In this document: positions 1 to 18,114 of the stretch, piece after piece
How positions within the stretch are numbered: position 1 is the stretch's first letter
Layout of the letters: the number at the start of each line of letters is the position of its first letter
Assembly (NCBI GenBank): GCA_027118455.1
Contig: JAJAYZ010000038.1
Location: 4,422-68,421, forward strand
Length of the DNA: 64,000 nt
Source of the DNA: Actinomycetes bacterium
Lineage (GTDB): Bacteria; Actinomycetota; Actinomycetes; JAHEKZ01
Direction of reading: 5' to 3'
Translations under genes and position numbers: made by a program
The notes under the pieces: generated by a model
What the model was told of the DNA's origin: nothing
The model's database searches: none
Seen by the model: the letters and a program-made list of their open reading frames with translations, nothing else

Positions 1-168
1 GCTGCCGTCGGCATCGTTGTCGACGATCACGGTGATGAGGTCGACGTGGTCGGGCACCTCGAGCTGAGCCAGACTCTGCAGCAACGAGGCAAGACCAACC
101 GGGCGGTGCAGGGTCGCAGCGCAGATCGCGATTCTGGTGCGCTCGCCCGCATGGAGGGGGGTCACCAC
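1..168 (-). CDS. Glycosyltransferase family 2, 5' partial (N-terminal about 56 aa; gene runs off the left edge)
   Basis: The reverse-complement frame reads VVTPLHAGERTRIAICAATLHRPVGLASLLQSLAQLEVPDHVDLITVIVDNDADGS. This is a typical GT2 N-terminus (hydrophobic strand then (I/V)VDNxxDxS). A GTG start at 166-168 lies 8 nt downstream of the stop of the preceding minus-strand gene. It is absent from the ORF track because it is truncated by the window edge. Confidence 0.45.
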   Translation of the reverse strand, partial: MVTPLHAGERTRIAICAATLHRPVGLASLLQSLAQLEVPDHVDLITVIVDNDADGS

Positions 169-175
169 AAGATCC

Positions 176-1693
176 TCACTCGCCCCGCCGTCCAAAGACC
201 GCCGCGGCGGTTCGCAGCAGGATCTTGATGTCCCACCAGAGTGACCAGTTCTCGATGTAGTAGTTGTCGTAAAGGGCGCGCTCAGCGATGGACGTGTCAC
301 CGCGAAGCCGATTGATCTGGGCCCACCCGGTGATCCCGGCTGGGACGCGATGGCGGCTGGTGTAGCGCGGAACCTCCGCCGAGAAGTGTGAGACGAAGTG
401 GGGTCGCTCCGGACGGGGGCCCACCAGGCTCATGTCTCCGGTGAGCACGTTCCAGAGCTGCGGCATCTCGTCAAGAGACGTGGTTCGCAGCAGCCGTCCG
501 ACGCGACCAACGCGCTCATCGTCCTTGATCGTCCAGTTGGTTTGGGACTCCGACTCGGTGGTCGGGCACATGCTTCGGAACTTGAGCATCTCGAAGGTGC
601 GTCCATCGAGTCCGACCCGCTCCTGTCGGAACAGGACCCTGGGGCCACCCTCGATCCGAACGGCTATGGCACACAAAGCCATGACGGGTGAGAGCAGGAC
701 AAGTGCGGTTCCGGAAACGATGATATCCATCACGCGCTTGAGGCGCCACGACAGGCTGCGGTAGGGCGATCGGCGTAGCCGGACGAGCGGAACTCCTCGG
801 ACGTCGTCGACCTCGCGGGAGGTGTTGTGCAGCTCAAAGAGGCGAGGGACGTAGTAGATGTCGCATTCCAGCCGGGCACACGTGCGCAGGACGTCGACCA
901 GTTCGGACTCAGGAAGAGAGGCAAAGGCGACGATGACCCGACTCACGTGGTTCTGCTCGACCACAGAGCCAACGTCATGCCAGGTTCCGAGGAGCGGAGC
1001 CGGCAACTCGCTCGGTCGATCGACCCGGGGATCGCTGTCGAGGAACCCGATGGGGTCAAGGCCGTACTCGCGGTAGTTCCGAAGGGCATGGGTGAGTCGG
1101 ATCCCCACGTGACCAGCACCGATGACCAGGGCGGTGTGCCTGGCCCAACCAGACTGACGAGAGTGGCGCAAGAGGACGTAAAGGCCGAAGCGCACGACGA
1201 CGAGTGCGGCCAGTGCGGCGAGCAGTCGTGTGACGCCAGCGCTGACGGAGAATGCGTCAGCCGATGCGGCAGCGACGACAAGGCCTGCGCTCATGCCAAC
1301 GATGCTGCTGAGGAAGAGCCGAGGGATGTCGTCGAGCAGCGACAGGTGCAAGCGCGCCTGGTAGAGCCCGAGAGCCGAGAGAGTGAGCAGCCCGGCGGCA
1401 AGAGTCGCGGCGGTTGCCCACGACCAGGGCTCACCGAACTGGCCTGCAGCCAGTAGTGCCAACGCGTCACCGATGAACAGGTAAGGCGCCGCCCCCCAAC
1501 GGCGCCAGACGCCCACCGATCGCGATGCCGACTTGGCGCTTGGGCTGGTGGTGACGACCAGGCTCGATGGCGGCGCGGCGGGCGGGCCGAGGTTCGCGGT
1601 CGTTGTGGGGGAAGAGTCCACAATTGTGGCATTTGGGGAAGTGAACACAGGTGTATCGGATCCGTGAACGTGCCGGCTGCCCAACGCCCTCAC
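176..1693 (-). CDS. Polyprenyl-phosphate hexose-1-phosphate transferase, bacterial sugar transferase family (WbaP/EpsL-like initiating enzyme)
   Basis: 505-aa ORF. The C-terminal catalytic block PRPERPHFVSHFSAEVPRYTSRHRVPAGITGWAQINRLRGDTSIAERALYDNYYIENWSLWWDIKILLRTA is the Bac_transf signature. Several TM helices lie upstream. The first about 60 aa are low-complexity, so the true start may be an internal GTG near 1513. Confidence 0.9.
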   Translation of the reverse strand: MRALGSRHVHGSDTPVFTSPNATIVDSSPTTTANLGPPAAPPSSLVVTTSPSAKSASRSVGVWRRWGAAPYLFIGDALALLAAGQFGEPWSWATAATLAAGLLTLSALGLYQARLHLSLLDDIPRLFLSSIVGMSAGLVVAAASADAFSVSAGVTRLLAALAALVVVRFGLYVLLRHSRQSGWARHTALVIGAGHVGIRLTHALRNYREYGLDPIGFLDSDPRVDRPSELPAPLLGTWHDVGSVVEQNHVSRVIVAFASLPESELVDVLRTCARLECDIYYVPRLFELHNTSREVDDVRGVPLVRLRRSPYRSLSWRLKRVMDIIVSGTALVLLSPVMALCAIAVRIEGGPRVLFRQERVGLDGRTFEMLKFRSMCPTTESESQTNWTIKDDERVGRVGRLLRTTSLDEMPQLWNVLTGDMSLVGPRPERPHFVSHFSAEVPRYTSRHRVPAGITGWAQINRLRGDTSIAERALYDNYYIENWSLWWDIKILLRTAAAVFGRRGE

Positions 1694-2034
1694 TCTTGCT
1701 GCCCCCTGCCTGGTGTTGCTTGGTTAACTCGGTCGCGACGCCCCGACCACGCGCCGCCGGGTAGGCATCGCGTCGAGACCAGTAGCCGAAGCGAATCCTC
1801 ACACATCGAGGATGAGCGTCACCAGAAGTTACCCATCTCGACCCCAAAAGCGCACCCAACATTCAGGTTTTGGTCACCTTCGAGCCCAACAATGTCACCC
1901 GAATGGGTTGACGGTCCTTACAGGCCGTCACCGTTGGTCACCAACAGTTGATGACCAGTGGTAGGTCTGGATTCACCTTAGCGACCGCCGACGCCTACGT
2001 GGGTGTGCCGGCGTCTTTTCGTCACTTTTGGCTG

Positions 2035-3510
2035 CTACTTGACGGCGACATTGCCGCTGACCGTGGTCGCTGAGTTGACCCCGAACCACTGCGGGTAGTC
2101 GCGGTTCTCCACGCCCATGGTGTTGTTGACAATCCGGACACCTGTCGTGGTGTACCCGTTCTTGTCGAGAGCGAAGACGTACTTTGCAGCTCGACCTCGG
2201 ATGATGTTGTCCGCGATCACGACGTCGCTGATGTTGCCAAAGCCGGCCACCAGCATGAACGCAGAGGTCTGGTAGCCCGATCCGTCTCCGTAGGGCGACT
2301 TGCCGGTATTCGTACCGGCCACCTGGCCCTTGGCGAACGACCAGGTATCAAAGCGGTTGTGCTGGAACACCATGTGCGATCCCTTGGTGGCCTGCACGCT
2401 GTCGTTGTGCGTCATGCCGCTGGTTTGGGCAGAGTCGGTCGTGTAGAAGAGGTCATGGATCCAGGTGTCGCGCACGTCCACGTTGCCTTCAGCCTTCAGC
2501 CCGTCGATCGTGCCGAGTATCTCCACACGCCGGAGGGTGTAGTTCGAATACTTCAGGGCCGACCCCTCACTGACTCCCTGCGGGTTACCCAGCGTGCTCA
2601 ACCACATGCGGAAGTTCGAGTGGGTATTGGTGGTCCCACCCCAGACCCTGCTGCACTTGACGGTGACATTGTCGTGGTCGATGTACAGGCGGCCGGTGAT
2701 CTCGACGTTCGAGATGACCTGACCGTTCTGGGTGGTGCGAAGGTCACCGTCGATCTTCTTGAGCTGCGCTGACGCTGGCACTCCGGTGGTCTCGGCGTCC
2801 GGATAGCCGGTGAGGGGCGGCGGAAGCTCGTTGCTGGCGCACAGATCGGTGTTCGTGGTCGGAGAGGGGCTGGGGGTCGGGGTTGGGGTAGGTGACGCTG
2901 TGCTCGGCGTTGGGGTGGGAGTAGAGCTCGGAGGGGGTGAGGGGGGTGCGCTCGACGAGGCGGAGGGACTCGGGGTGGGGCTGAGGGGCGGCTGGTCTCC
3001 TGTGCCAGTAGCTGCCGACCCGGACACCTTGAACTTCGTCGTCGTTGAGATGGAGAAGCCATTGCTGAACTGCGCGAGCGCGATCACCTGGTGATCGCCA
3101 GCGGAGAGGCCAGCAAGGTGCCAGGGGTTAGCGGTGCCTTGAGTCGCGCCCAACATGTCAAACTCGGTAGTCACCGGTGCGCCATCGACGTGCTCGGCTA
3201 CTGCCGTGTGGTCCGGAGTCCCGCTTCCGGGCCGATCGACCCAGAACCGAACCTCGGTGGCGCCGGGCACCGTCGCGAACACGTAGATGTCGGTGCGGTC
3301 GACCATCCCGACCAGACGCCCAGCGTTGCTGTGATCGGCAGACAGGCTGAAGTTGAGCCCGACTCGCGCGGGACTCGACCCAAGAGCCGCAGGGACGGCG
3401 ATGGCGATGGCGAGCGTTGAGACCACGAGATAGGCGATGACCGTCCATCGCTTTTCGGTGGCTCCTGAGATCAACTGTGCGGCGCGGCCGTGAGTCACGT
3501 GGTGCTCCAT
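2035..3510 (-). CDS. Membrane-anchored exported protein: Ig-like domain, Pro/Thr/Ser-rich linker, right-handed parallel beta-helix (pectate-lyase-like fold)
   Basis: 491 aa. There is one N-terminal TM (WTVIAYLVVSTLAIAIAVPAALG). A long PT linker follows (PSPSASSSAPPSPPPSSTPTPTPSTASPTPTPTPSPSP). The C-terminal region has repeating beta-helix rungs (NVEITGRLYIDHDNVTVKCSRVWGG..NIIRGRAAKYVFALDKNGYTTTGVRIVNNTMG). Confidence 0.65.
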   Translation of the reverse strand: MEHHVTHGRAAQLISGATEKRWTVIAYLVVSTLAIAIAVPAALGSSPARVGLNFSLSADHSNAGRLVGMVDRTDIYVFATVPGATEVRFWVDRPGSGTPDHTAVAEHVDGAPVTTEFDMLGATQGTANPWHLAGLSAGDHQVIALAQFSNGFSISTTTKFKVSGSAATGTGDQPPLSPTPSPSASSSAPPSPPPSSTPTPTPSTASPTPTPTPSPSPTTNTDLCASNELPPPLTGYPDAETTGVPASAQLKKIDGDLRTTQNGQVISNVEITGRLYIDHDNVTVKCSRVWGGTTNTHSNFRMWLSTLGNPQGVSEGSALKYSNYTLRRVEILGTIDGLKAEGNVDVRDTWIHDLFYTTDSAQTSGMTHNDSVQATKGSHMVFQHNRFDTWSFAKGQVAGTNTGKSPYGDGSGYQTSAFMLVAGFGNISDVVIADNIIRGRAAKYVFALDKNGYTTTGVRIVNNTMGVENRDYPQWFGVNSATTVSGNVAVK

Positions 3511-3729: not shown

Positions 3730-4905
3730 GTGAAAAACGAACGTGCCGAACGAGATCGCAGACCCTTGACGGTCATGATGGTGTCGTACGCCTCTGCCCT
3801 GGGCGGTGCCGAGCGGAGTCTTTTGACTTTGGCGACTCACCTCGGTGTACGCGGCGTGAATCCGATACTCGTGTGCCCAGATGGCCCGCTTGCCGACCGA
3901 GCTTTGGGACTGGGGCTGACCGTTGCTCGCAGTCCCCTTTCGGCCCCCCGTCGGGTGAGTCGCCGCCGATCCACGGGCAAGAATTACTCGCCAACAGCAA
4001 TGGCTGCCCGCGGCCGTAACAGTCTCAAGGACTCTCGATTGCTACGTCGAGTGGCCGTTGAGCACGGCGCCGACCTGCTGCACAGCAACTCGCTACCCGG
4101 ACATCTGCCCACCGCGCTAGCTGGTCGTCTCGCGCGGGCTCCGGTGGTGTGGCACCTGCGCGAGATCGTCGAGCCTGGCCCCGGCCGGGAAGTGTTGTCC
4201 CTCATGGGCCGGCTCACGGAGGGCATGGTGGCGATCAGCGACGCTGTTGCGGCGTCCGTACGACACCCCCGCGTGTGGACGGTGTACAACCCGGTTTCGG
4301 AACCACCAGCCGTCGTTGCACGACCCACGTGGTCATTGCCCAAACCCCTGGTCGGCTATCTCGGGCGCATTGATCCCAGCAAAGGTATCGAGCACCTGAT
4401 CGTCGCGGCCGGACTCTTCAGCGCGGAAGTCGCCATCGTGGGAGATCTGGATGCGGCGCAGCCTGACTATGTCGCCAGCCTGCGGGCCTTGGCTGGGCGT
4501 CACGCTCCCGAGCATGTCCATTTCATGGGGGCGGTCGAAGAGCCATGGGGTGCCTTGGCAGAGTTTGACGTGCTGGTCGTGCCTTCGCTGGCCGAGCCTT
4601 TCGGTCGGGTGGCTGCTGAGGGCCAACGCGCAGGAGTGGTGGTAGTCGCGGCCGGTGCCGGTGGCCTCCCCGAGATCGTCACCGATGGGGAAGACGGCCT
4701 TATTTACCAGCCAGGCGATCGCGTAGCCCTGGCCAAGTCGGTCGAGAGCGTGCTGGCCGCCCCAGCGCTGGCCGAACGGCTGCGGTCGGCGGGCAAGGTG
4801 AGCTCGGAACGATTCGACCCCAGCCAGCACGCCGATGCGATGGCAGCGATCTTCAACGAGTGCGTTGGTCCTGATTCCCGCCCGGCCCCGAGAGGTGGCC
4901 GATAG
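3730..4905 (+). CDS. Glycosyltransferase family 4 (GT-B, retaining)
   Basis: The C-terminal GT4 motif EPFGRVAAEGQRAGVVVVAAGAGGLPEIVTDGEDGLIYQPGD is present. GTG start at 3730 with an upstream GGAGAGG. It is divergent from the beta-helix gene. Confidence 0.85.
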   Translation: MKNERAERDRRPLTVMMVSYASALGGAERSLLTLATHLGVRGVNPILVCPDGPLADRALGLGLTVARSPLSAPRRVSRRRSTGKNYSPTAMAARGRNSLKDSRLLRRVAVEHGADLLHSNSLPGHLPTALAGRLARAPVVWHLREIVEPGPGREVLSLMGRLTEGMVAISDAVAASVRHPRVWTVYNPVSEPPAVVARPTWSLPKPLVGYLGRIDPSKGIEHLIVAAGLFSAEVAIVGDLDAAQPDYVASLRALAGRHAPEHVHFMGAVEEPWGALAEFDVLVVPSLAEPFGRVAAEGQRAGVVVVAAGAGGLPEIVTDGEDGLIYQPGDRVALAKSVESVLAAPALAERLRSAGKVSSERFDPSQHADAMAAIFNECVGPDSRPAPRGGR

Positions 4906-4981: not shown

Positions 4982-6127
4982 ATGAGAAGCGTCATGGTGA
5001 CGAAGTTTGTGCCGTATCCGGCCAATGCTGGTGGAAGGATCCGCTCCCTCGCAATTCTGCGTCGGCTGCTGGACCAAGGGGAAGTTGTTCTCTGCTGCTT
5101 TGACGACGGCTCGTCGGATGCTGCCGAACTGCGTCGCCTTGGCATTGATGTTCGAACCGTCCCCTGGGACACCAGCGTGCCCAACGTCGTACGGGGTATC
5201 GCGAAGGCCCACAGTGGCTCGGCGGGTAGGTTCTGGGACCGGCGACTTGCCGCACTGGTCCGGCGGGCCTGCGCTGAGCAGCCAGCGGATCTGCTTCAGG
5301 TCGAGTACTCGCAGCTGGCTCCCTATCTTGACGTCGGATCTGCCCGACTCAAGGTCCTTGACTTCCACAACATCGAGTCATCGCTCGCGTTGAGCTTTGC
5401 GCGTAGCTCACGTGAGCTCAAAGCTTGGCTCGCCTATCCCGAGTCGGTCCTGCTTCGACGACTGGAGAAGAAGGGCGCAGAACGGGCAGATTTAGTCCTG
5501 GTGGTCAGCGAGGAAGACCGACAGCGTCTCCCCGGTCGTCCCCGTGAGGTCTTGGTCTGCCCCAACGGTTGGGACCCGGGTGAAGTTCTCCCTGCGTCGA
5601 CCGAACCCGTCGCTGCGTTCGTTGCCTTAATGGGCTGGAAACCGAACTCAGACGCTGCGGTCTGGCTGGCTCGTGAGGTTTGGCCGCTGGTCCGAGCTTC
5701 TGTCCCGGATGCGCGGCTTCTCCTGGTCGGGAGAGAGCCTGGTCGGGTGGTAACCGACCTTGCGGCACCGGACATTGAGGTGACCGGCACAGTTCCCGAG
5801 ATCGCGCCCTACTTGCAGCAGTCGATGGTGGCCTTGGCTCCGCTGTTGTCAGGAGGAGGGACCAGGCTGAAGGTTTTGGAGGCACTCAATTCCGGCCGAC
5901 CCCTGGTTTCTACGAGCGTCGGCATTGACGGTCTCACCGACCTGATCGGCAAGGGGGTCTTCGTGGGTGACAGTCCTGCGGATTTCGCCAAAGAGATCGT
6001 CGACCTCTTCGGCGACCCCGAGCGGGCCAGAAAAGCCGGGCTCGAAGGGGCCGAAGCGGCCCGCACCCACTACTCCTGGGACGGCACGCTTCGTTCCTGG
6101 AGCGAGAGAATTTCTCGATTGAAGTGA
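4982..6127 (+). CDS. Glycosyltransferase family 4
   Basis: 381 aa. The N-terminal GT-B Rossmann half starts MVTKFVPYPANAGGRIRS. The C-terminal part has LKVLEALNSGRPLVSTSVGIDGLTD..GVFVGDSPADF. Confidence 0.85.
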   Translation: MRSVMVTKFVPYPANAGGRIRSLAILRRLLDQGEVVLCCFDDGSSDAAELRRLGIDVRTVPWDTSVPNVVRGIAKAHSGSAGRFWDRRLAALVRRACAEQPADLLQVEYSQLAPYLDVGSARLKVLDFHNIESSLALSFARSSRELKAWLAYPESVLLRRLEKKGAERADLVLVVSEEDRQRLPGRPREVLVCPNGWDPGEVLPASTEPVAAFVALMGWKPNSDAAVWLAREVWPLVRASVPDARLLLVGREPGRVVTDLAAPDIEVTGTVPEIAPYLQQSMVALAPLLSGGGTRLKVLEALNSGRPLVSTSVGIDGLTDLIGKGVFVGDSPADFAKEIVDLFGDPERARKAGLEGAEAARTHYSWDGTLRSWSERISRLK

Positions 6128-6131
6128 GACT

Positions 6132-7550: not shown

Positions 7551-7683
7551 ACACCCCGCGTGTCTGCCGAATGGGGGAACTGCTGCTCATCGCAGGAGTT
7601 CTGACGCGGGCCGCCAGGCTGCCGGGTACCGTTGGCCTGGAATCATGCGACGTCAACGCGGGCGATCAGGGAAGAAGAGGGAG

Positions 7684-10544: not shown

Positions 10545-11404
10545 CGACGTCGCCGGGTCGACTGCCGACCTTTCTCATCATCGGTGCCATGAAGTCCGGA
10601 AGCACCACGCTCTATAACCACCTGCGTCAGCATCCGGAAGTAATGCTTCCCGACTACAAGGAGCCGGAGTTCTTCGTCGAGGAGAAGAACTGGTCGCGTG
10701 GAGTTGACTGGTATCGGAGTCTGTTCATCGGAGCAGGCGAGGTCACAGCGGTAGGCGAGGCGTCTACCAGCTACACCAAGTTCACTGAATTCGGGGGGGT
10801 ACCCGCTCGGATTGCATCGGTCCTGCCAGACGTACAACTGGTTTACGTGCTCAGGGAGCCCATCTCGCGAATGCGTTCGATGTACCAGCACCAGGTGCTC
10901 ACTCGTAGCGAGTCCCGGCCGATCAATGAAGCGCTCCTCAAGGACGACCGCTACCTGGGCCCTAGTCTCTATGCCGAGAACGCACGCCGTTACCTCGACT
11001 ACTTCCCCAGGGACCGGTTGCATTTCCTGCTGACCGACGATCTCCAAAAGGACCCATCAGCAGCTGTGCGAGGGGTTACCGAGTTCCTTGGTCTACCGGA
11101 CACTCCCGACTTCGTACCGACCGAACGTGTCGATCTGCGGACGAGCGACCGTCGGGCCGACCGTCGGATCAAGTCGCGTGTGAGGGGCCTGGCTGCCGTC
11201 GAGGTCGGATTTCGCAGGGCACCCTCGTCGGTGCAGAACCTGCTTCGCAGGGTGGCAACGCGTCCTTCAACCGCGAGTGGTCCCACCGAGTTGGACCCGG
11301 CAACGGTCGAGGTGTTGCTGGAGAAGGTTCGGCCCGACTTGGAAAACCTCACCAGGATGCTCGGACCCCAGTTCGATGCATGGGGGCTGCTCGACCTCCC
11401 CTGA
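10541..11404 (+). CDS. PAPS-dependent sulfotransferase family protein
   Basis: 5'-PSB loop FLIIGAMKSGSTTL and 3'-PB motif YVLREPISRMRSMYQH are present. The ATG at 10541 overlaps the GT2 stop (ATGA). The ORF track extends the frame upstream to 10271 but that part overlaps GT2 and is not credible. Confidence 0.8.
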   Translation: MTTSPGRLPTFLIIGAMKSGSTTLYNHLRQHPEVMLPDYKEPEFFVEEKNWSRGVDWYRSLFIGAGEVTAVGEASTSYTKFTEFGGVPARIASVLPDVQLVYVLREPISRMRSMYQHQVLTRSESRPINEALLKDDRYLGPSLYAENARRYLDYFPRDRLHFLLTDDLQKDPSAAVRGVTEFLGLPDTPDFVPTERVDLRTSDRRADRRIKSRVRGLAAVEVGFRRAPSSVQNLLRRVATRPSTASGPTELDPATVEVLLEKVRPDLENLTRMLGPQFDAWGLLDLP

Positions 11405-11480
11405 TGTGGGGTGATCAGCCTTGACGAAAGGCACGGCGGCCGACGACAGCTAGACCTACGCTAGACGGGCGGGCCGCACG

Positions 11481-12344
11481 ATGTGGCCGACGACCAAAGG
11501 GGAACCTGTGAAGCTTGAGCAGCGGCTGCGTGGAGCTGTGGCGCCAGGCGCCCGTACCGTGCTCGGAGCGTTGGGGCTTCACTCGGAGCCGAACTTCTTG
11601 ATCATCGGAACGCAAAAGGGCGGGACGACGTCGCTGTACGAGTACTTGATCCAACACCCACGGGTGTGTGCAGCTCGCCGCAAGGAGATCCACTACTTCG
11701 ACCGGTTCGAGAGCCTTGGCTGGGACTGGTATCGCAGTCAGTTTCCGCTCGCCGCGGCGCGACCTGGTGTTGTCACCGGCGAAGCCACGCCCTACTACTT
11801 GTTTCACCCAGACATCCCGCGCAGGGTCGCGGCTGCACTTCCTGAGGTGAAGCTGATCACGGTTTTGCGCAACCCCGCGGAACGTGCTTACTCCCACTAC
11901 CAACACTCGCTGCGGCACGATGTTGGGCTCAAGAGCTTCGAAGATGCCTTGGAGGTGGAGCGAGAGCTCTTGGCCGATCATGGTCTCGAGGAGGGTTTCT
12001 ACGATCGCGACGACTGGCATCGGCACTCCTATGTCACCAGGGGTTACTACGCCGATCAGCTGGAGCACTGGTTTGATCAGTTCCCACGCGGCCGACACCT
12101 CGTGCTCACCAGCGAAGACCTGCGGACTGACCCGGCGACGCAGATCGAACGGGTCGTCGCCTTCCTGGGGCTTCCCGAGTGGCAGCAGGCGACGTTTCCC
12201 TCCCACCATCGCGGTGGCTACTCAGTCGAACCTGGCGATCGTGCGGCCCTCGCGGAGCTTCGTACCCACTATCGGCCGCACAACCAGCGGCTCGGCGACC
12301 TGCTGGGCCAGCACTTTTCACGGTGGGACGACCCCGGCGCCTGA
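11481..12344 (+). CDS. PAPS-dependent sulfotransferase family protein (paralogue of the preceding gene)
   Basis: 5'-PSB FLIIGTQKGGTTSL and 3'-PB TVLRNPAERAYSHYQH are present. Length and architecture are the same as 10541-11404. Confidence 0.8.
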   Translation: MWPTTKGEPVKLEQRLRGAVAPGARTVLGALGLHSEPNFLIIGTQKGGTTSLYEYLIQHPRVCAARRKEIHYFDRFESLGWDWYRSQFPLAAARPGVVTGEATPYYLFHPDIPRRVAAALPEVKLITVLRNPAERAYSHYQHSLRHDVGLKSFEDALEVERELLADHGLEEGFYDRDDWHRHSYVTRGYYADQLEHWFDQFPRGRHLVLTSEDLRTDPATQIERVVAFLGLPEWQQATFPSHHRGGYSVEPGDRAALAELRTHYRPHNQRLGDLLGQHFSRWDDPGA

Positions 12345-12787
12345 CCCCGGCGTGTCGCCCGGGCATCGAGAGCGACACCATCGACAGTAGATGCTGGTGG
12401 GGGCCACTCGACCTGGAGCCGACTCATGTTCGACGCTGGTGCTGTTCTTGTTCTCGCCATTGTTGGTGGCGTGTGTGAGGTCGGGCTCGGGCTTTTGGTC
12501 GGTGGCATGATCGCCCACGGACAGCGTCACTCGCCATCGCAGTGGGAGTCGCACCTGGAGGGAAGTACTTTGAGTAACCGGACAGTCACCGAGCGCTAGC
12601 GAGCGTCGGTGGTCCCGGCCGAGATTGGCCGTTGGTCACTGCACACCCGGTCATTAGGGCATACTGAAGCGGCGCGCCGGCTCAGCTGTCCAGTCACTTC
12701 TGGTCTGTCCGGGTTCGCTCCCGCAATACTCTCGATCAGTGGTCAGCGCTCATACGCGTGCGTTCAGTCACAGCGAATGACAAGGGG

Positions 12788-14866
12788 ATGAGTCACCTGA
12801 GCAGGACTGACCGTCAACGGTCGACAGCACGAGGCACCTTTGGTGCTGGAAGCGCACGACGGGCCATCACCATGGCGACGGCCGCTCTGGTGGCGACGAC
12901 GGGTCTGATGGCCTTGTCTGCACCGGCTGGTGCTACCACTGCCCCGACGACGTATCAAGACCATGTCTATAGCAGTTCCGCCAGCGCACCCTCTTCGGAC
13001 AAGCCCCAGAGCAAGCTCTGGTTCAACGACGGATCCTGGTGGGCGTTGATGCTGGGGTCCTCGAGCGTGAACGTCTACCGCCTGATGCCCGACCACACTT
13101 GGCAGGACACCGGGACGGTCGTAGACACCCGGGCCACCAGCACCGGCGACGCGCTGTGGAGCAATGGAAAACTGTATGTGGCCAGTCGTACCGCTGGGAC
13201 CACAGGCAAGATCCGCATCTACCGCTTCTCCTATTCGGCTACCACCAAGAAGTACACCAAGGACACCGGCTTCCCGGTCTACATCGGCGGCGGTGGTGTC
13301 GAGAGTGTCACCATCGACAGGGACAGCCTCGGCCGGCTCTGGATCACATTCACCCGCGACAAGGCGGTCTGGGTCAGTCACACCACTATCTCCGATGCCG
13401 CCTGGCGCACGCCGTTCCGGATTCCAGGCTACGAAACGGACGGAGTGGCCGCTGACGACATTTCTGCGCTGGTCAGCCTCGGTGGGAAAATTGGGGTTTT
13501 CTGGTCTGACCAGCAATCAGGAAAGTTCAAGTTCGCACTTCACGTTGACACAGATCCCGACACAGTGTGGACGGGGGAGGTTCCCTTTCAAGGCTTCAAC
13601 ATCCCTGACGACCACATGAACATGAAGTCGATGCTTGGCGATGACCAGGGCCGACTGCACATCGCTGTGAAGACGTCGCTCGGTGACAATGGCGAGCCTC
13701 CCGAATCGCCTGGAGTCATTCTCATGACGCGAACGGCAGCAGGGGTTTGGTCCCAGGTGACGGTCGCCACCAAGGGCGACAACCTGACCCGCCCACAGGT
13801 GGTGCTCGACCGAGCGCACCAAGAGCTCACTGTGCTCATGTCCGATGAGTTCGGTGGGAACATCTACTCGAAGACCACGCCCCTCAACAACATCGCGTTC
13901 GCCCCTGGCAAGGGTGACGTCTTCATGTCATGGCCTGGCGCGGCGCTCAACAACGTCAGCACCTCGAAAGACCCGGTCAACGCGACGACGGGAATCGTCG
14001 CCATCGCGACGTCCAACACGGGCAACCGCTACTACCACGCCGAGATGCCCATCGATCCCGTTGCGGATTTGGATCCGCCATCTGTCGTGTCGATGTCACC
14101 CATCGACGGTGCAACAGGCGTGACGTCCACGGTGAGCCCAACGGTGACGTTCTCCGAACCGATGGACCCCAGCACCATTGACGCGAGTGCGTTCACCTTG
14201 GGTGGTCCCTCCGGCTCGGTCGCTGCGAACGTCACCTACGACGCCGCGTCCCGCGTCGCGACCCTCGATCCCACTGCGTCGCTTGCTGCCGGCGCGCCCT
14301 ACACCGCCACGATGAGCACGGGGGCGAAGGACCTGTCCGGGAATGCTCTGCCGGCCCCTTCGATCTGGAGTTTCTCTACCGGCGGAACTGCTGGCGAGAC
14401 AGTGAGCCTCACTCCCACTGCAGACGCGTACGTTTCGAGCGGGGCCTCGTCTTCGAACTTTGGTACGCAGACGTCGCTGATGGTGGACGGAAGCCCAGAC
14501 GTCAAGAGCTACCTCAAGTTCGACCTATCCAGTGTGGCGGGCCGCACGATCCAGTCAGCGTCCCTCTCGGTGCCTGTCACGACAAGCGGATCGGTGGGCA
14601 CTCAGAGTGTCCGGCTCACCGTGAAGGACACCTGGACCGAAGCCGGCATCACCTACGCAAACCGAGTTGGCCTCGACGCAACGGTTGGCACCTTCGGACC
14701 AACGGTGGGCGCCACGACCTACGCGGTGCCGTTGAGCCCCTCAGCCCTGCAGCCCAAGGTTGGCGGCCTCCTCTCCCTGGCGATCAGCTCGTCCAGTGGC
14801 GACGACGTCATCTTCGGCTCTCGGGAAAGCGCCCCGCCCACGCAGTTGGTTCTGGTTCTGCAGTAG
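12788..14866 (+). CDS. Secreted protein: N-terminal beta-rich domain, bacterial Ig-like domain, C-terminal beta-sandwich (carbohydrate-binding-like)
   Basis: Signal peptide MATAALVATTGLMALSAPAGA. An Ig-like segment reads PPSVVSMSPIDGATGVTSTVSPTVTFSEPMDPSTIDASAFTL..AGAPYTATMSTGAKDLSGNAL. The C-terminal part has a YLKFDLSSV motif. ATG at 12788 follows AAGGGG; the ORF opens at 12758. Confidence 0.6.
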   Translation: MSHLSRTDRQRSTARGTFGAGSARRAITMATAALVATTGLMALSAPAGATTAPTTYQDHVYSSSASAPSSDKPQSKLWFNDGSWWALMLGSSSVNVYRLMPDHTWQDTGTVVDTRATSTGDALWSNGKLYVASRTAGTTGKIRIYRFSYSATTKKYTKDTGFPVYIGGGGVESVTIDRDSLGRLWITFTRDKAVWVSHTTISDAAWRTPFRIPGYETDGVAADDISALVSLGGKIGVFWSDQQSGKFKFALHVDTDPDTVWTGEVPFQGFNIPDDHMNMKSMLGDDQGRLHIAVKTSLGDNGEPPESPGVILMTRTAAGVWSQVTVATKGDNLTRPQVVLDRAHQELTVLMSDEFGGNIYSKTTPLNNIAFAPGKGDVFMSWPGAALNNVSTSKDPVNATTGIVAIATSNTGNRYYHAEMPIDPVADLDPPSVVSMSPIDGATGVTSTVSPTVTFSEPMDPSTIDASAFTLGGPSGSVAANVTYDAASRVATLDPTASLAAGAPYTATMSTGAKDLSGNALPAPSIWSFSTGGTAGETVSLTPTADAYVSSGASSSNFGTQTSLMVDGSPDVKSYLKFDLSSVAGRTIQSASLSVPVTTSGSVGTQSVRLTVKDTWTEAGITYANRVGLDATVGTFGPTVGATTYAVPLSPSALQPKVGGLLSLAISSSSGDDVIFGSRESAPPTQLVLVLQ

Positions 14867-14883
14867 CGGTTCCCCGGCTTTCC

Positions 14884-15813
14884 TTACGGTTGCTTGGTAC
14901 CTTCTGGCGGTGGTGCCGAGCGACTTTCACTGAGTTTGGCGAGTTGTCCGTAGGTGCGCAGCACACGCACGTAGGAGAATGCCGTCGCGTACCGGATCTT
15001 GTCGTCGCGCCGGACTGGCTCCGCGGCATGCCAGACCCTGCGCCAGACTGCAGTCCCGGCTCGTAGGTCAGAGAGTGCGGCCCGTGCCAGAGCGCGCTTT
15101 CCGCCAACACCACGGTGTTCGGCGAGCCCCCGTCCCACCCGCAGCGCCTTGCGACCGAGATCTGTCCAAGTCGTACGCGCCGGATGTTCGACGAGCGCGA
15201 GGGGCGCGTAGCCCAGCTTGCCGCCGCATCCTCGAAGACGGTGGCACCACTGCATGTCACCACCGGAACGGAGCGACGAGTCGAAGGGACCAACCTTGCG
15301 CATGGCGTCGGCGCGGACAAAGAGATTGGCGGTCACCGCGAAGCCGTCGCGCTCGATGTAACGCTGTTGGGGGAATCCCTCGACCGATTCGAAGATCTCC
15401 GGAGCGGTCTTCGGCCGGTCACCTCGAAAGGTCATGCGCACGGCCCCTCCTACAGCATCGCAATCGCTGGCGCGCAGGGCGACGATCCCTTCGGCTAACC
15501 AATCTCTGGCCGGAGTGCAGTCAGCATCGGTGAAAGCAAGGACTTCTCCGGTCGCTGCGGCCATCGCGGTGTTCCTGGCTGTGTAAGAGCCCGGACGTGG
15601 TTCGTGGAGCAGCACGAAGCGTGGGTCGTTGGGCATGGATTCTGCAACATCAAGGGTGGATCCGTTGTCGACGACCACCACGAGGACTCGGTCGGGCCGG
15701 TAGGTCTGGTCGAGCAGCGCTTCCGTGCAACGCCGCAAGCCATCTGGGTCGTCGAACACAGGAATCACGACGGTGACGTGCGGATCTTCGGCCATGCAAT
15801 GCACACAACTCAC
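14884..15813 (-). CDS. Glycosyltransferase family 2
   Basis: VTVVIPVFDDPDGLRRCTEALLDQTYRPDRVLVVVVDNGSTL and a downstream FTDADC (DXD) are present. It lies 24 nt downstream of the kinase-like gene on the same strand. Confidence 0.8.
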   Translation of the reverse strand: MSCVHCMAEDPHVTVVIPVFDDPDGLRRCTEALLDQTYRPDRVLVVVVDNGSTLDVAESMPNDPRFVLLHEPRPGSYTARNTAMAAATGEVLAFTDADCTPARDWLAEGIVALRASDCDAVGGAVRMTFRGDRPKTAPEIFESVEGFPQQRYIERDGFAVTANLFVRADAMRKVGPFDSSLRSGGDMQWCHRLRGCGGKLGYAPLALVEHPARTTWTDLGRKALRVGRGLAEHRGVGGKRALARAALSDLRAGTAVWRRVWHAAEPVRRDDKIRYATAFSYVRVLRTYGQLAKLSESRSAPPPEGTKQP

Positions 15814-15837
15814 GAGTGAATCATCACTGAACGATCC

Positions 15838-18114
15838 CTAGGCTGCTTTCGCTCGAGCACGCGCCCAGCGCGAGAACGTGCGGCCGGTCGCTCGGCGTGT
15901 GGTTCGCGCCCCCAATCGAACCTGTCCTTGGATGCGGCGTACTGGTCCGCGAGGTCCTAGGATCGCCCGTTTGGTTCGAAACACGGCGCGGCTCGTGTGC
16001 TGCGACATCGGCGAACCGGATGTGAGCTGGTCTGCCGAGAGCCCGGTGAATGCGAGCCATCGGCGCTCGTAGGAGAGATCGCTGACGGGTAGGTCGTCGG
16101 TGTATCCGGCGGGGACGCCTCGAAAGGCGTAGCTCGATGCGAAGGGTGGCCGATCGTTGGTGTACCGGTGCAGGAACTCGAAGTCGACAATCTTCAGGCC
16201 GGCTCGGTGGTCAAGGATGAAGTTCTGTGGCTTGGCGTCGACGAGATCGAAGCCGTGCTCATGGATCTGGCGGAGGACGTCAACCATGTCGCGCACCAAG
16301 GGGAGGGGCACGAGTTTCCTGGACGTCATGAGTGGTGCCAGCTGATCCCGGTAATAAGGGCAGCTGAACCAGTTGTCCCCGCTTGCGAGGAGAGGTGGGA
16401 CCGCAGCCACCTCGGGGGAGAGCTGCTGCAGTGCCAGTAGCTCTCGTTCCATGTGACGGAGGTAGCCAGCCGCGAAGGTCTTCCGGACGACCCGACCGTC
16501 CGCGCCATCGACGACCTCGACCTTGGCCCGGCGTCCTCGGCTGAGCTGCCTCACGACCGGAACGGTGGTCCGGTAATGCACTCGACGCTGGCCGACGAGC
16601 TCTTGCAGCTCCTCCGCAGCCTGGGGGAGTGCGATGGTCACGTACTCCCAGGCCTCGAGCTCGTTGTCCGACGAGTGGACAGGGTTGAATCGCTCATGCG
16701 CCGAAACCCGAGCAGCCACAAGGTCGCGGACCCGCTCCTTGGCGACGAGAACGTCGTTGTTGGACAGGCGCGGGTATTTGTCGAGTGCCTTTCCGACGGG
16801 GGGAGCCGGCGCATAATGGACGGCCACGACAACTGTTACCGGTCCGCCGCCGCTCACTGGGAAGGGGCCCTGGCCCCAGTTGCCGCCACGTGTTTGTTCA
16901 GCGCAACGCGCCGCGGCAGCTGAGTCGAGCTCAGAGGTCATCAGCACCTCGAACCCGAGGTGATCCAGAAGCGCCAGGACCTCGTCGGTGCCGACCACCG
17001 ATGCGAGTCGCTCTCTGAGCAAGAAGACGGTCGTCTCAGGTGGGATCACCGGCTCTGGCTTCGCTGCGAAGAACTTCGCCTTGATCCACAGATTCCCATC
17101 TGCGAGTCGAACGAGCGTATCCACTGACGGACGCCAGCCCTCACCTGCCAGATATTCATCAACACCGTCGAGGGAAGCATCAAGGCGTACCCCGACCGAC
17201 CGAGCCAGGGATTCGAGGGCTGACTTGTAGTCGTGCTCGGGGTCGGTCACTGTTTCAGCAACGTGCGCTGATGCCAGACCCGAGCTCATTCCCTTGTGGT
17301 AGGCGGCGTGGTAGGCAAGCGAACGGAGATGGTCCAGCGGCGCAGGAACGCGGCAGCCGCTGGAATGAACGACGGCTCGATCGAGCAGCTGACGCGCCAA
17401 CTGCGGGGGGTAGTAGGCCATGTTCTTGTAGTCCGATGACGGCAGGCCGGTTTCGCTGTACAGGTCGAGAGGGATCGTTCCTGGCTCCTCGTTCATCAGG
17501 GTTCCGAAGGCGGCCAGGTGTTCATCTGTGACCAGAACGTCGAGATCTTCGCCCGGCTCCATGTGGGGCAAGTCCTCGAACCAGCGCAGAGCTGCGTACT
17601 GGATTCCGGCGGCATCCAGACGTTGGATCAGCCCCTCTGGACCCCACACGGGCGAGAAGTACCGACGCGTCCTTGGTGGTGCCTGGCGTGAGATCTCCAG
17701 GAGGTCGAAGCGGGTTTCCCCAACATCGAACCTACCCCTGGGCGTGACCGCTCGAGAGAACCGAGCCGCGGTCTTTGCGAGTCGGGTTTCGACGTCTCGG
17801 GCGCTCCACCCGGACTCCAGTGCTACGTAGCGGACGTGGCGAAGCTCACCGACCATCCAGAGCCGTTCGGCAAAGGCGGGTCGAACGATCAGCACGTCGG
17901 TGCTGCATCGGCGGACTTGGTCCGGTGAGGCAAGCTCATGAAAGCGCCGCTCAAGGCCATCTGCCTGCGACCGGACGGTATGCAGCGCCGCTAAAGTGAC
18001 GAGTCCGAGGTAGCGGGTGACGCCATCGGAAGCCAACTCGTGCGCGAGGTCGGGACTCTCAACCCCGAAATCGAGAATGCGCGTCTCAGGTTGGAGGAAG
18101 GTGGGCAACTGCAC
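15838..18114 (-). CDS. Large multidomain protein with C-terminal APH/choline-kinase-like phosphotransferase core; N-terminal two-thirds uncharacterised
   Basis: 758 aa. The C-terminus has the ordered set RVVRKTF (Lys) .. ELLALQQL (Glu) .. FDLVDAKPQNFIL (catalytic HxDxxxxN-like loop) .. IVDFEF (DFE/DWE Mg-binding). This points to a protein-kinase-like phosphotransferase of the aminoglycoside/choline kinase type. The middle region contains GEDLDVLVTDEHL, possibly nucleotidyltransferase-like (weak). Confidence 0.55.
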   Translation of the reverse strand: MQLPTFLQPETRILDFGVESPDLAHELASDGVTRYLGLVTLAALHTVRSQADGLERRFHELASPDQVRRCSTDVLIVRPAFAERLWMVGELRHVRYVALESGWSARDVETRLAKTAARFSRAVTPRGRFDVGETRFDLLEISRQAPPRTRRYFSPVWGPEGLIQRLDAAGIQYAALRWFEDLPHMEPGEDLDVLVTDEHLAAFGTLMNEEPGTIPLDLYSETGLPSSDYKNMAYYPPQLARQLLDRAVVHSSGCRVPAPLDHLRSLAYHAAYHKGMSSGLASAHVAETVTDPEHDYKSALESLARSVGVRLDASLDGVDEYLAGEGWRPSVDTLVRLADGNLWIKAKFFAAKPEPVIPPETTVFLLRERLASVVGTDEVLALLDHLGFEVLMTSELDSAAAARCAEQTRGGNWGQGPFPVSGGGPVTVVVAVHYAPAPPVGKALDKYPRLSNNDVLVAKERVRDLVAARVSAHERFNPVHSSDNELEAWEYVTIALPQAAEELQELVGQRRVHYRTTVPVVRQLSRGRRAKVEVVDGADGRVVRKTFAAGYLRHMERELLALQQLSPEVAAVPPLLASGDNWFSCPYYRDQLAPLMTSRKLVPLPLVRDMVDVLRQIHEHGFDLVDAKPQNFILDHRAGLKIVDFEFLHRYTNDRPPFASSYAFRGVPAGYTDDLPVSDLSYERRWLAFTGLSADQLTSGSPMSQHTSRAVFRTKRAILGPRGPVRRIQGQVRLGARTTRRATGRTFSRWARARAKAA

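Follow-up and report, generated by a model that had tools for sequence, protein, structure and literature searches.

A surface-polysaccharide locus of an uncultured actinobacterium that probably makes a sulfated glycan

Introduction

Does a glycan-assembly locus with sulfotransferase genes in its midst make a sulfated polymer, and are the sulfotransferases a part of its pathway? The question is raised by the first 18 kb of the window, the 64-kb stretch of DNA analysed here, which comes from an uncultured actinobacterial MAG and in which sulfation is predicted from the genes. A preliminary description had proposed a sulfated, possibly phosphorylated heteropolysaccharide, with the sulfotransferases integral to its synthesis. 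Gene content, family membership, conserved motifs, gene coupling and synteny were read directly, and form the ground for the pathway proposed below.

Results

Glycan-assembly genes

The region 1-18114 is a surface-polysaccharide gene cluster of about 18 kb. Every component of the parts list drawn up earlier was located by HMM in its place, and together they form a coherent heteroglycan assembly locus. Its right boundary is thrS (18280-20268, +), as previously described, and the left side is open at the window edge. The locus is chromosomal, with core genes, thrS and the PIM cluster as neighbours. At 0.61-0.63, the sulfotransferase region has a G+C content similar to that of the remaining locus, and no IS element is found among the annotated ORFs.

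The predicted initiating enzyme is a large polyprenyl-phosphate hexose-1-phosphate transferase (PGT; 176..1693, -; Bac_transf 231 bits, CoA_binding_3 57.6 bits), which exceeds the cut-off of the TIGR03025 EPS_sugtrans model (421 against 295.55 bits) and falls below that of the WcaJ model (392.6 against 410.75 bits). All three GT2 glycosyltransferases described earlier are present, two of them complete and the third cut by the left window edge. GT2a (9543..10544, +) and GT2b (14884..15813, -; immediately downstream of the gene for a 758-aa protein, kin758) match Glycos_transf_2 with 35.2 and 85 bits. The 5' part of the cut gene (1..168, -; reverse-strand translation ...RIAICAATLHRPVGLASLLQSLAQLEVPDHVDLITVIVDNDADGS) encodes a GT2a paralogue, of which 55 aligned aa match residues 18-72 of GT2a with 47% identity (E 3e-12); the GTG start of this gene, at 168, lies 7 nt past the PGT stop. 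Two GT4 glycosyltransferases, GT4a (3730..4905, +; Glycos_transf_1 89.4 bits, Glyco_transf_4 45 bits) and GT4b (4982..6127, +; Glyco_trans_1_4 79 bits; TIGR03087-like at 220 bits, under the model cut-off), share 56% and 68% identity with their orthologues in the related contig L086.

The putative repeat-unit polymerase is a Wzy_C-family polytopic membrane protein (6132..7550, +) with about 12 hydrophobic segments, a PF04932 score of 48.9 bits (cut-off 31.7), and orthologues of 85% and 50% identity in L085 and L086. A fused TMD-NBD ABC exporter of the MsbA/HepA/PglK-like kind (7645..9546, +) is the putative flippase of the lipid-linked unit. It matches ABC_tran with 107.5 bits, and its ABC_membrane score of 25.3 bits falls short of the 28-bit cut-off; in NCBIfam it scores highest against HepA (254 bits) and MsbA (237 bits) and misses all equivalog cut-offs. 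The exporter is kept beside Wzy_C loci in relatives, and is 54-59% identical to the kin758-adjoining ABC proteins of Georgenia and Cellulomonas. The flippase role is assumed because Wzx is absent from the window, which is open on the left: the HMM search gave no Wzx-type (Polysacc_synt) match in any ORF of the locus.

Sulfotransferases

ST1 (10541..11404, +) is a predicted PAPS-type carbohydrate sulfotransferase, HS 3-OST/NDST-like and of the bacterial 3RNL-like subfamily; ST2 (11481..12344, +) is a second one, a paralogue of 36% identity. Both ORFs are intact, and each product scores above the thresholds of Sulfotransfer_1 and Sulfotransfer_3, upholding the earlier assignment (ST1: 57.1 bits for Sulfotransfer_1, where the cut-off is 22 bits, and 49.8 bits for Sulfotransfer_3; ST2: 81.4 bits for Sulfotransfer_1). 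Their best matches among solved structures are the animal HS 3-O-sulfotransferases, the NDST sulfotransferase domain and bacterial 3RNL, with E-values for ST1 of 1e-24 (3RNL) and ~1e-16 (HS 3-OST-1, HS 3-OST-3, NDST), and for ST2 of 6e-29 (human HS 3-OST-3A1). The 5'-PSB, 3'-PB and KE.HFF catalytic motifs are common to all of these proteins. Residues K18 and G20 (5'-PSB) and R105, P107, R110 and S113 (3'-PB) of ST1 are invariant in the family alignment A1, while QKGGTT, KEIHYFD and RNPAERAYS of ST2 align to the PAPS and catalytic motifs of HS 3-OST-3A1. ST1 also carries a C-terminal extension of ~90 residues ending in a conserved FDxWG motif, common to 3RNL-like bacterial proteins. Identity to the animal enzymes and 3RNL is only roughly 30%, as estimated by eye from printed alignments, and acceptor specificity is not transferable at this distance.

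Judged by family and PAPS-binding motifs, ST1 and ST2 are genuine carbohydrate-type sulfotransferases. Since the locus carries both, its product is probably a sulfated glycan, sulfation being predicted from the genes. Neither protein has a TM segment or signal peptide, which places both, like PAPS, in the cytoplasm. ATGA start/stop overlaps at 9543-9546 (ABC/GT2a) and 10541-10544 (GT2a/ST1) bear out the translational coupling of exporter, glycosyltransferase and sulfotransferase reported previously. A small ORF of 57 aa with a single hydrophobic TM segment (12426..12599, +; translation MFDAGAVLVLAIVGGVCEVGLGLLVGGMIAHGQ...) lies between the sulfotransferase and propeller genes; L085 has a near-identical copy and L086 an ORF in the analogous position, and the family search returned no match.

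Exported proteins and kin758

Two proteins had been described as exported and beta-helix/Ig-like. Export is predicted for both, and their domains differ. The 491-aa protein (2035..3510, -) has an N-terminal membrane anchor (a single hydrophobic segment, residues 24-42), a Pro/Ser/Thr-rich linker and a C-terminal right-handed beta-helix-like domain, and is a putative glycanase, lyase or epimerase. Direct sequence searches of Pfam, NCBIfam and PDB gave no match for it. The putative beta-helix domain is assigned through homologous Cellulomonas paralogues (L084; 26-29% identity), of which two of the five aligned members match PF13229 Beta_helix (E 1.9e-8); orthologues in L002, L003 and L086 are 51-56% identical. 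The 702-aa protein (12758..14866, +) is not a beta-helix protein: it combines a Tat-like signal with a seven-bladed beta-propeller, a Big_5 Ig-like domain and CBM96/DNRLRE, and is putatively glycan-binding or glycan-cleaving.

The supposed APH-like kinase turned out to be the RIO/ePK-like C-terminal domain of kin758 (15838..18114, -). This 758-aa multidomain protein is cytoplasmic and belongs to an uncharacterised actinobacterial family. It seems improbable that the kinase domain also phosphorylates the glycan, and the phosphorylation suggested earlier finds no specific support. The protein has no APH, WaaP or Kdo-kinase family match, and the nearest neighbours of the kinase domain are protein or RNA kinases. 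The kinase is one of four domains, the remaining 510 residues being uncharacterised, and its substrate could be a protein, the lipid carrier or a small molecule. The family is moreover independent of sulfation and present in unsulfated loci: kin758 belongs to an ancestral core of ABC, kin758 and GT2b.

Conservation of the locus

The order ABC, GT2a, ST1 recurs in four other related contigs, and ST1 is therefore integral to the locus. ST1 identities are 83% in L085, the closest relative of the window, 64-65% in L002 and L003, and 61% in L086, where synteny is near-complete (PGT, beta-helix, GT4a, GT4b, Wzy, ABC, GT2a, ST1, small ORF, propeller, kin758). GT2a lies directly 5' of the ST1 orthologue in all four. 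More distantly, the Acidimicrobiia loci L044, L063 and L064 have full-length GT2a homologues (38-41%) ~1 kb upstream of ST homologues, and L071 has a partial match (41%) at a similar distance. ST2 has an orthologue in L085 only (85% identity) and is missing from L086, L002 and L003. Thus the sulfotransferase pair is not conserved as such, and the earlier claim that both enzymes are integral stands for ST1 and is not supported for ST2.

Loci of cultured Micrococcales share the base of the pathway. Georgenia soli, Cellulomonas sp. WB94 and Cellulosimicrobium protaetiae have kin758 orthologues (50-52%), GT2b (49-50%) and Wzy_C; Cellulomonas additionally has Bac_transf and beta-helix proteins. The first two keep the kin758-GT2b order and an orthologous ABC, and in Cellulosimicrobium the ABC is different and the GT2b homologue (49%) neighbours kin758 but is encoded on the other strand. 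All these products (ABC, 760-aa protein, GT2, Wzy_C) are annotated as hypothetical. Unlike the window, none of the three loci has a GT2a-ST1 module, ST2 or propeller-CBM96 gene within 10 kb, and no sulfotransferase accompanies the base genes. The polymer therefore does not need sulfation, which appears as a lineage-specific add-on to a conserved pathway.

That related loci work without sulfotransferases might also mean that the sulfotransferase genes are non-functional in vivo, through decayed activity or lack of PAPS, and that the polymer is unsulfated. Neither the 64-kb window nor most of the related loci yielded a motif of APS kinase, ATP sulfurylase or CysQ, but genomes often carry the APS kinase gene at another site. 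With both ORFs intact, all PAPS-binding and catalytic motifs conserved, and ST1 maintained in five contigs with 61-83% identity, a sign of selection, we consider loss of function very unlikely.

At E<=1e-30 the ST1 family comprises 962 cluster representatives. Its genes are common in glycan loci: of 65 long loci, at least 35 carry genes for glycan assembly (homologues of GT, PGT or Wzy). The Modestobacter marinus sulfotransferase comes directly after Wzx in an epimerase-PGT-Wzy-Wzx locus. Similar sulfotransferase-bearing clusters have already been described (PMC8205485, PMC11641403, PMC11766843), including one from an actinomycete (PMC13390465). Sulfotransferases in bacterial glycan loci are thus less rare than the preliminary description claimed; their rarity was overstated.

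The remaining 30 of the 65 long loci have no BLAST-detectable glycan gene. The closest cultured ST1 homologue, from Geodermatophilus ruber, lies outside any glycan context, with HpaB, amidohydrolase and flavin-reductase neighbours; family members can therefore have other acceptors. In the window, the sulfotransferases might act on a glycolipid, lipo-oligosaccharide, glycosylated protein or small metabolite, their position reflecting co-regulation only. According to PMC8205485, known non-cyanobacterial carbohydrate sulfotransferases use lipo-oligosaccharides and glycolipids (rhizobial Nod factor, mycobacterial). However, GT2a and ST1 are translationally coupled and stay together in the four syntenic contigs, the region 1-18 kb is free of genes for lipid, polyketide or peptide biosynthesis, and the best structural relatives of ST1 and ST2 act on polysaccharide chains. 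Another acceptor is accordingly doubtful.

Discussion

We favour, with some confidence, the reading that the locus builds a repeat-unit cell-envelope heteropolysaccharide on polyprenyl-phosphate, and that this lineage gained a cytoplasmic sulfation module. We infer the catalytic steps from family membership, and the acceptor, the sulfation site and the fate of the polymer are inferred likewise. The PGT would place hexose-1-phosphate onto the lipid carrier, and GT4a, GT4b, GT2a, GT2b and the edge-cut GT2 would lengthen the unit on the cytoplasmic side. With PAPS as donor, ST1, here joined by ST2, would sulfate hydroxyl groups (or an amine) on the sugars of the lipid-linked unit; the most likely target of ST1 is the residue that the coupled GT2a adds, or one close to it. 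The MsbA/PglK-like ABC half-transporter would replace the missing Wzx in flipping the unit, and the Wzy_C protein would polymerise it. Outside the cell, the anchored beta-helix and secreted propeller-Big_5-CBM96 proteins might bind, trim or modify the anionic polymer.

A somewhat less probable product, and still a serious candidate, is a wall-associated secondary glycopolymer (teichuronic-acid-like), sulfated in this lineage and remodelled by the beta-helix and propeller proteins, as opposed to a released exopolysaccharide. The base locus (ABC, kin758, GT2b, Wzy_C, PGT) occupies conserved core-genome neighbourhoods, adjoining pth, rplY, prs, glmU and mfd in Georgenia and Cellulomonas and rpsA in L002, where a UDP-glucose/GDP-mannose dehydrogenase is also close to the block. 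Neither Wzz/PCP nor an outer export component was found among the locus ORFs, which fits this product. On the other hand, an LCP (LytR-CpsA-Psr) ligase was not found in the scanned ORFs, and the location of a polymer is not readable from sequence.

Our reading of a sulfated heteropolysaccharide has precedents of several kinds. Marine Gammaproteobacteria (Vibrio sp. KMM 8419, PMC11641403; Cobetia marina, PMC11766843) likewise embed sulfotransferases in capsule loci, and the sulfated CPS structure of the Vibrio strain was solved by NMR (PMC11641403). Their clusters include extra cysDNC copies, regarded by the authors as a hallmark, and capsule-type ABC transport, whereas the window has no PAPS genes.

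The EPS-type cluster wps-1 of Actinoplanes missouriensis (PMC13390465, 2026) resembles the window in its Wzy_C/O-antigen-ligase-like polymerase, GT2, two sulfotransferases, protein-kinase-like protein and secreted glycan-active enzyme, a likeness drawn from the cluster description and not from Wps protein sequences. Its sulfated polysaccharide is the authors' prediction; both sulfotransferase genes are required for the phenotype, a link to sulfation that is genetic, not chemical (PMC13390465). One of the two has a heparan-sulfate sulfotransferase domain, and they belong to two different families, whereas ST1 and ST2 are both HS-type paralogues. wps-1 uses Wzx and Wzz, and has a methyltransferase, GH26 and an adjacent sulfate adenylyltransferase/APS-kinase gene; the window has an MsbA-like ABC with no Wzx or Wzz in view, beta-helix and propeller-CBM96 proteins, and no PAPS gene.

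The xss (synechan) cluster of Synechocystis, whose sulfated product is chemically verified (PMC8205485), resembles the window in that its repeat-unit pathway combines multiple GTs and a Wzy polymerase with two sulfotransferases encoded among them; there the two are of distinct subfamilies (PMC8205485). It lies on a megaplasmid of a diderm host and comprises Wzx, PCP, OPX and the XssS/R/Q regulators, whereas the locus described here is chromosomal and actinobacterial, adjoins core genes, and brings an ABC flippase candidate and kin758.

Gene organization and borders of the locus

The genes of the first 18.1 kb of the window were obtained from a six-frame ORF listing and HMM scans, which bear out the dense glycan-assembly gene set of the preliminary description. 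Three genes lie on the minus strand at the left end: a GT2 glycosyltransferase gene cut by the window edge (1-168), whose N-terminal product is a paralogue of GT2a (47% identity over 55 aa, E 3e-12); the gene of a large polyprenyl-phosphate sugar-phosphate transferase (PGT, 176-1693; Bac_transf 231 bits; TIGR03025 421 bits, above the cut-off); and the gene of a 491-aa protein (2035-3510), which has a single hydrophobic anchor at its N-terminus and a linker rich in Pro, Ser and Thr, and which matches no Pfam family. A co-directional plus-strand run starts with the glycosyltransferase gene GT4a (3730-4905) and continues with GT4b (4982-6127), a Wzy_C protein of about 12 hydrophobic segments (6132-7550; PF04932 48.9 bits against a cut-off of 31.7), a fused ABC exporter carrying ABC_membrane and ABC_tran (7645-9546), the glycosyltransferase GT2a (9543-10544), the sulfotransferases ST1 (10541-11404) and ST2 (11481-12344), a small 57-aa ORF with a single transmembrane segment (12426-12599) and a 702-aa exported protein (12758-14866). 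The minus-strand genes of a further glycosyltransferase, GT2b (14884-15813), and of a 758-aa multidomain protein with a C-terminal kinase domain (kin758, 15838-18114) converge on this run.

The right border is formed by thrS (18280-20268). This is a true boundary, since the genes past it belong to the core actinobacterial chromosome: HIT, pgsA, an HtrB-like acyltransferase and a PimA-like GT4 are followed by pdxST, ruvB, secDF, relA, hisS, aspS and alaS. Both ATGA overlaps claimed earlier, between ABC and GT2a and between GT2a and ST1, are found in the sequence. In G+C content (0.61-0.63), the surroundings of the sulfotransferase genes resemble the remaining locus, and no locus ORF matched a transposase or other mobile-element family in the HMM scans. 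A promoter and terminator scan gave no useful signal: it returned no promoter-like site, and shuffled sequences held more terminator-like sites than the real one. The Rfam search found nothing within the locus, which also holds no tRNAs.

Two features outside the locus deserve mention. An HTTM-domain membrane protein (20803-21696, minus strand) and an EF-G-like GTPase paralogue (22217-24553, minus strand) are inserted between thrS-HIT and the cluster of pgsA, the HtrB-like acyltransferase and pimA. Shortly after a type IV pilus-like set composed of T2SSE ATPases (58549-60270 and 60361-62127) and a further ORF (62082-63365) comes a c-di-GMP-I riboswitch aptamer (RF01051, 63431-63505, plus strand; 51.3 bits, E 4e-7), and the gene under its control begins near or past the window end.

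Two predicted carbohydrate sulfotransferases

Both sulfotransferases pass the Pfam check, with PF00685 scores of 57.1 (ST1) and 81.4 bits (ST2) against a cut-off of 22, and PF13469 (Sulfotransfer_3) scores of 49.8 and 53.4 bits against 27. The 5'-phosphosulfate-binding loop K-x-G-[ST]-[ST] is present as MKSGSTT in ST1 and as QKGGTT in ST2, the latter aligned with KKGGT of 3-OST-3. The 3'-phosphate-binding motif R-x-P-x-x-R-x-x-S reads REPISRMRS in ST1 and RNPAERAYS in ST2, aligned with RDPVTRAIS of 3-OST-3. In the catalytic Glu/His segment (KE.HFF), ST2 has KEIHYFD, aligned with AEPHFFD of 3-OST-3, and ST1 has KEPEFF with the Glu kept; some members of the ST1 family carry A at this Glu position and keep the second Glu, according to the family alignment. 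Residues K18, G20, R105, P107, R110 and S113 of ST1 are invariant in the 15-sequence family alignment. ST2 matches human heparan-sulfate 3-O-sulfotransferase-3A1 with E 6e-29, and ST1 matches the bacterial sulfotransferase structure 3RNL with E 1e-24 and HS 3-OST and NDST with E of about 1e-16. The two proteins are paralogues with 36% identity. PAPS is made in the cytoplasm; neither ST1 nor ST2 contains a hydrophobic segment, and therefore both should be located there, at the site of PAPS synthesis. By every feature that can be read from sequence, ST1 and ST2 are predicted to be PAPS-dependent carbohydrate sulfotransferases.

A sulfotransferase unit on an apparently older core

A genome-collection scan with the ST1-family alignment returned 80 loci, which were compared with the window proteins, and further contigs of close metagenomic homologues were taken through exact-protein look-up. 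The order ABC, GT2a, ST1 is kept in four related contigs. In L085 (ST1 83% identical) it is found with Wzy, ST2, the small ORF and the propeller protein (the 702-aa exported protein). L086 (ST1 61%) encodes PGT, the 491-aa homologue, GT4a, GT4b, Wzy_C, ABC, GT2a, ST1, a small ORF, the propeller protein and kin758, reproducing the gene order of the window without ST2 and GT2b. In L002 and L003 (ST1 64-65%), kin758 is divergent from ABC-GT2a-ST1, which is followed by a convergent 491-aa homologue. Since four related contigs retain this arrangement, ST1 is a stable member of this locus type. ST2 is confined to the window and L085, so that the pair as such is not conserved. A metagenome scan for the source of ST2 with ST2 peptides matched 50 stretches, none of which encodes a relative.

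Outside these contigs, full-length GT2a homologues (38-41%) are located about 1 kb upstream of sulfotransferase homologues in three Acidimicrobiia loci (L044, L063, L064), and a partial GT2a match (41%) is found at a similar distance from a sulfotransferase homologue in L071. A universal cross-phylum pairing of GT2a with the sulfotransferase was rejected, since in Alphaproteobacteria the similarity of the neighbouring GT2 proteins is limited to the generic N-terminal GT2 domain (30-36%), and the full-length pairing is seen only in Actinomycetota.

Related loci of Micrococcales carry base genes of the window locus. In Georgenia soli and Cellulomonas sp. WB94, a kin758 orthologue (51-52%) lies divergently beside an orthologous ABC gene (54-59%), with a GT2b orthologue (50%) next in line; Wzy_C and GT2 genes lie around them, to which Cellulomonas adds GT4, Bac_transf and beta-helix genes; no sulfotransferase was found within 10 kb of these kin758 orthologues. 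In Cellulosimicrobium protaetiae, the kin758 orthologue (50%) has as its neighbour a GT2b homologue (49%) encoded on the opposite strand, and GT2, GT4 and Wzy_C genes lie around it; the transporter there is a separate Wzm/Wzt-type pair, and no sulfotransferase is found within 10 kb. As these Micrococcales loci carry base genes with no sulfotransferase within 10 kb, ABC, kin758 and GT2b appear to be the older core, to which GT2a-ST1 and later ST2 would have been added in the lineage of the window. The preliminary description had taken the sulfotransferases to be integral to the pathway. It named as refuting an outcome in which relatives lack these genes and the genes belong to an unrelated inserted operon. 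The first part does apply to homologous loci in relatives; the second does not, as ST1 is retained and its translation is coupled. The picture is one of an existing pathway that apparently acquired a GT2-sulfotransferase unit as a module.

Near the kin758-ABC-GT2a-ST1 block of L002 lies a 781-aa ORF (L002 14436-16781, plus strand), the C-terminal 440 aa of which are a UDP-glucose/GDP-mannose dehydrogenase; its N-terminal 340 aa have no assignment and may be an artefact of ORF calling. The dehydrogenase hints at a uronic acid in the polymer of this related MAG. For several observations, a polymer tied to the wall is no worse an explanation than a free exopolysaccharide: this nearby UDP-sugar dehydrogenase, the core-genome location of the base locus in several genera, and the lack of a Wzz or GNVR match, the signature of a Wzz/PCP protein, among the locus ORFs.

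A conserved kinase-containing protein

The kin758 family comprises 214 full-length homologues of about 760 aa, many of them from cultured Micrococcales; none is functionally named and almost none has a precomputed Pfam domain. Identity remains at 50-52% between the window MAG and Georgenia, Cellulomonas and Cellulosimicrobium (L082, L083 and L084 at 10001-12400), and further homologues are listed from Pengzhenrongella, Oerskovia and Actinotalea. Each of the seven loci that were examined is a glycan locus, in which the gene is usually adjoined by an MsbA-like ABC gene and a GT2 gene. The earlier label of an APH-like kinase is not the best description of this protein, which neither matches PF01636 nor has APH as its nearest structural neighbour. 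It does display a protein-kinase-like (ePK/RIO) fold, with the bilobal arrangement, beta3 Lys, alphaC Glu, catalytic Asp/Asn and metal-binding Asp. Across 47 homologues, K545 and E558 do not vary, and D626, N631 and D644 occur in at least 90%. It is likely that kin758 is an active kinase.

Beyond the kinase set, the motifs RWF..GEDLDxLV, AYHxxYHKG, RGGNWG and FNPVHSSDN are invariant. From secondary structure we can only infer that residues 1-510 comprise three further domains: one Rossmann-like, one that might be a Pol-beta-type nucleotidyltransferase (invariant RWF...GEDLDxLV...D217), and one of alpha/beta type with the invariant FNPVHSSDN. The putative nucleotidyltransferase has no Pfam match, and a profile search of PDB with the N-terminal 510 aa returned nothing significant. 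A resemblance of this part to nucleoside-diphosphate kinases (PDB profile E of about 1, with a collinear N-x-x-H-S-S-D) was rejected, hhalign against E. coli Ndk giving a probability of 0.6%. Cultured Micrococcales, in whose glycan loci the unannotated 760-aa protein accompanies an ABC exporter and a GT2, are where it could be studied directly.

Exported proteins and the small ORF

The 702-aa protein scores above the Pfam cut-offs for CBM96 (81.7 against 26) and Big_5 (85.2 against 23.6) and the NCBIfam cut-off for DNRLRE (57.8 against 34), and matches PDB 8WAB with E 3.5e-5. Its sequence holds a twin-arginine-like signal, made up of SARRAIT and a hydrophobic stretch after it. The N-terminal 380-aa domain occurs in 321 proteins with variable C-terminal modules. 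This seven-bladed propeller domain (12758-14110, plus strand) is an unannotated module across Actinomycetota, for example in Blastococcus, Modestobacter, Cellulomonas and Pengzhenrongella, and is fused in various proteins to Big_5+CBM96, FN3, RTX repeats, PKD, CopC or SLH domains. NCBI annotates the protein as 599 aa, with a start about 103 codons later (12758-12868 being concerned); the 692-aa orthologue in L085 matches the long form over 98% of the query. The deposited start looks too far downstream, because the long form has both the Tat-like signal and the match to this orthologue.

The 491-aa protein had no match in direct Pfam and PDB searches, PF13229 included. Two Cellulomonas proteins can be aligned to its C-terminal 270 residues (26-29% identity, tblastn E 1e-14 to 1e-19), and these two match PF13229 Beta_helix with E 1.9e-8, indirectly supporting its assignment as a right-handed beta-helix. 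The small single-transmembrane ORF (57-64 aa) lies between the sulfotransferase and propeller-CBM96 genes in three contigs (window 12426-12599, plus strand; L085 6374-6553; L086 10936-11130) and has no family match.

Assembly and export of the predicted polymer

A repeat-unit pathway on polyprenyl phosphate is the best-supported reading of the locus. The initiating transferase of a Wzx/Wzy system is present as PGT, and the polytopic Wzy_C protein is the inferred polymerase, its domain being found in WaaL ligases as well. No ORF of 1-18114 gave a Polysacc_synt or MurJ-type match indicative of a MOP-family Wzx, the window being open on the left, and no Polysacc_synt-type protein is found among the listed genes of the Georgenia and Cellulomonas base loci and L086. 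An ABC-dependent Wzm/Wzt pathway fails as an alternative: the transporter is a fused half-transporter, and Wzy_C is present. This exporter has type-I architecture (ABC_membrane at residues 102-323, ABC_tran at 408-557; 5-6 hydrophobic segments) and scores below all NCBIfam equivalog cut-offs (HepA 254 against 725, MsbA 237 against 602, PglK 153 against 1000), so that by its profile scores it resembles the MsbA/PglK/HepA group and is a member of no named equivalog.

Under the repeat-unit pathway, PGT would start the unit on polyprenyl phosphate, five glycosyltransferases would lengthen it, and ST1 and ST2 would sulfate it in the cytoplasm. The MsbA/PglK-like ABC protein would take the place of the missing Wzx, and the Wzy_C protein would polymerise the units. 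Outside the cell, the putative beta-helix protein and the propeller-CBM96 protein might bind or process the anionic polymer.

Is the glycan sulfated?

The interpretation of the locus as one for a sulfated glycan is partly supported, and we consider it moderately probable that the product is sulfated by ST1 and/or ST2. The reading is weakened by the lack of PAPS-synthesis genes: a motif scan, less sensitive than HMMs, found no APS kinase, CysD, CysN or CysQ signature in the 64-kb window, and PAPS-synthesis motifs matched in only 1-2 of the 84 related loci. It is further weakened by the occurrence of ST1-family members outside glycan loci, for example in Geodermatophilus ruber. Among the novelties of the locus, sulfation ranks below the conserved 760-aa kinase-containing protein and the apparent modular GT2-sulfotransferase gain.

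A more ambitious reading, which we hold to be rather doubtful, is that the window and the four related contigs represent an undescribed actinobacterial pathway, in which Wzy_C, an MsbA-like ABC flippase and the conserved four-domain cytoplasmic kin758 would make a wall or surface glycopolymer rendered sulfated by a portable GT2-sulfotransferase cassette. If true, no sulfated envelope polysaccharide of a Gram-positive actinobacterium would precede it, the Actinoplanes prediction aside, and a new catalytic role would fall to the 760-aa protein, for example in the synthesis or transfer of an activated phospho-substituent or in the gating of export.

Comparison with known systems

Sulfated polysaccharides are valued biomaterials, and those of bacteria were long thought to be almost confined to cyanobacteria. 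The view that sulfotransferases are rare in bacterial glycan loci is dated, as indicated by family counts and published clusters. Among 50%-identity clusters, representatives of the ST1 family number 962 at E<=1e-30 and 18,086 at E<=1e-10, and BLAST-detectable PGT, GT or Wzy genes are present in at least 35 of 65 long ST1-family loci. In Modestobacter marinus CPCC 205245 (L004, 3313-14632), an ST1-family gene directly follows Wzx in an epimerase-PGT-Wzy_C-Wzx locus, and past it lie three IS/transposase genes and then a GT4; being cultured, this strain offers a practical test case for actinobacterial glycan sulfation. The window locus adds evidence that soil and sediment Actinomycetota, too, carry sulfation modules inside surface-glycan operons, and suggests the compact GT2-sulfotransferase pair as a unit giving sulfation to an existing pathway.

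Chemically verified sulfated polymers have been tied to sulfotransferase clusters for synechan (PMC8205485) and for the capsular polysaccharides of Vibrio sp. KMM 8419 (PMC11641403) and Cobetia marina (PMC11766843). Sulfate is also present in the exopolysaccharide of Salipiger mucosus (PMC2953402), and its relative Salipiger bermudensis has ST1-family genes beside GT2 genes (L025, L033). The presence of cysDNC in the cluster, beside the sulfotransferases, is regarded by the Vibrio authors as a hallmark of a sulfated capsule (PMC11641403), whereas no PAPS-synthesis motif was found in the window. The synechan xss cluster has the regulatory set XssS/XssR/XssQ; among the ORFs of the window locus, the HMM scans gave no match to a two-component or STAND regulator.

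The most relevant precedent is wps-1 of Actinoplanes missouriensis (2026), which encodes two sulfotransferases, one of HS type, a kinase-like protein, a methyltransferase, GH26 and Wzx/Wzy/Wzz; a sulfate adenylyltransferase/APS-kinase gene lies next to it. The cluster is predicted to make a sulfated exopolysaccharide, and both sulfotransferase genes are required for sporangium formation (PMC13390465). The general idea was thus already published for Actinoplanes in 2026, which, together with the MAG source and the predicted chemistry, limits the practical value of the present locus. The window locus is of the same kind as wps-1 and differs from it in the export and flipping machinery and in its accessory set of kin758 and the propeller protein.
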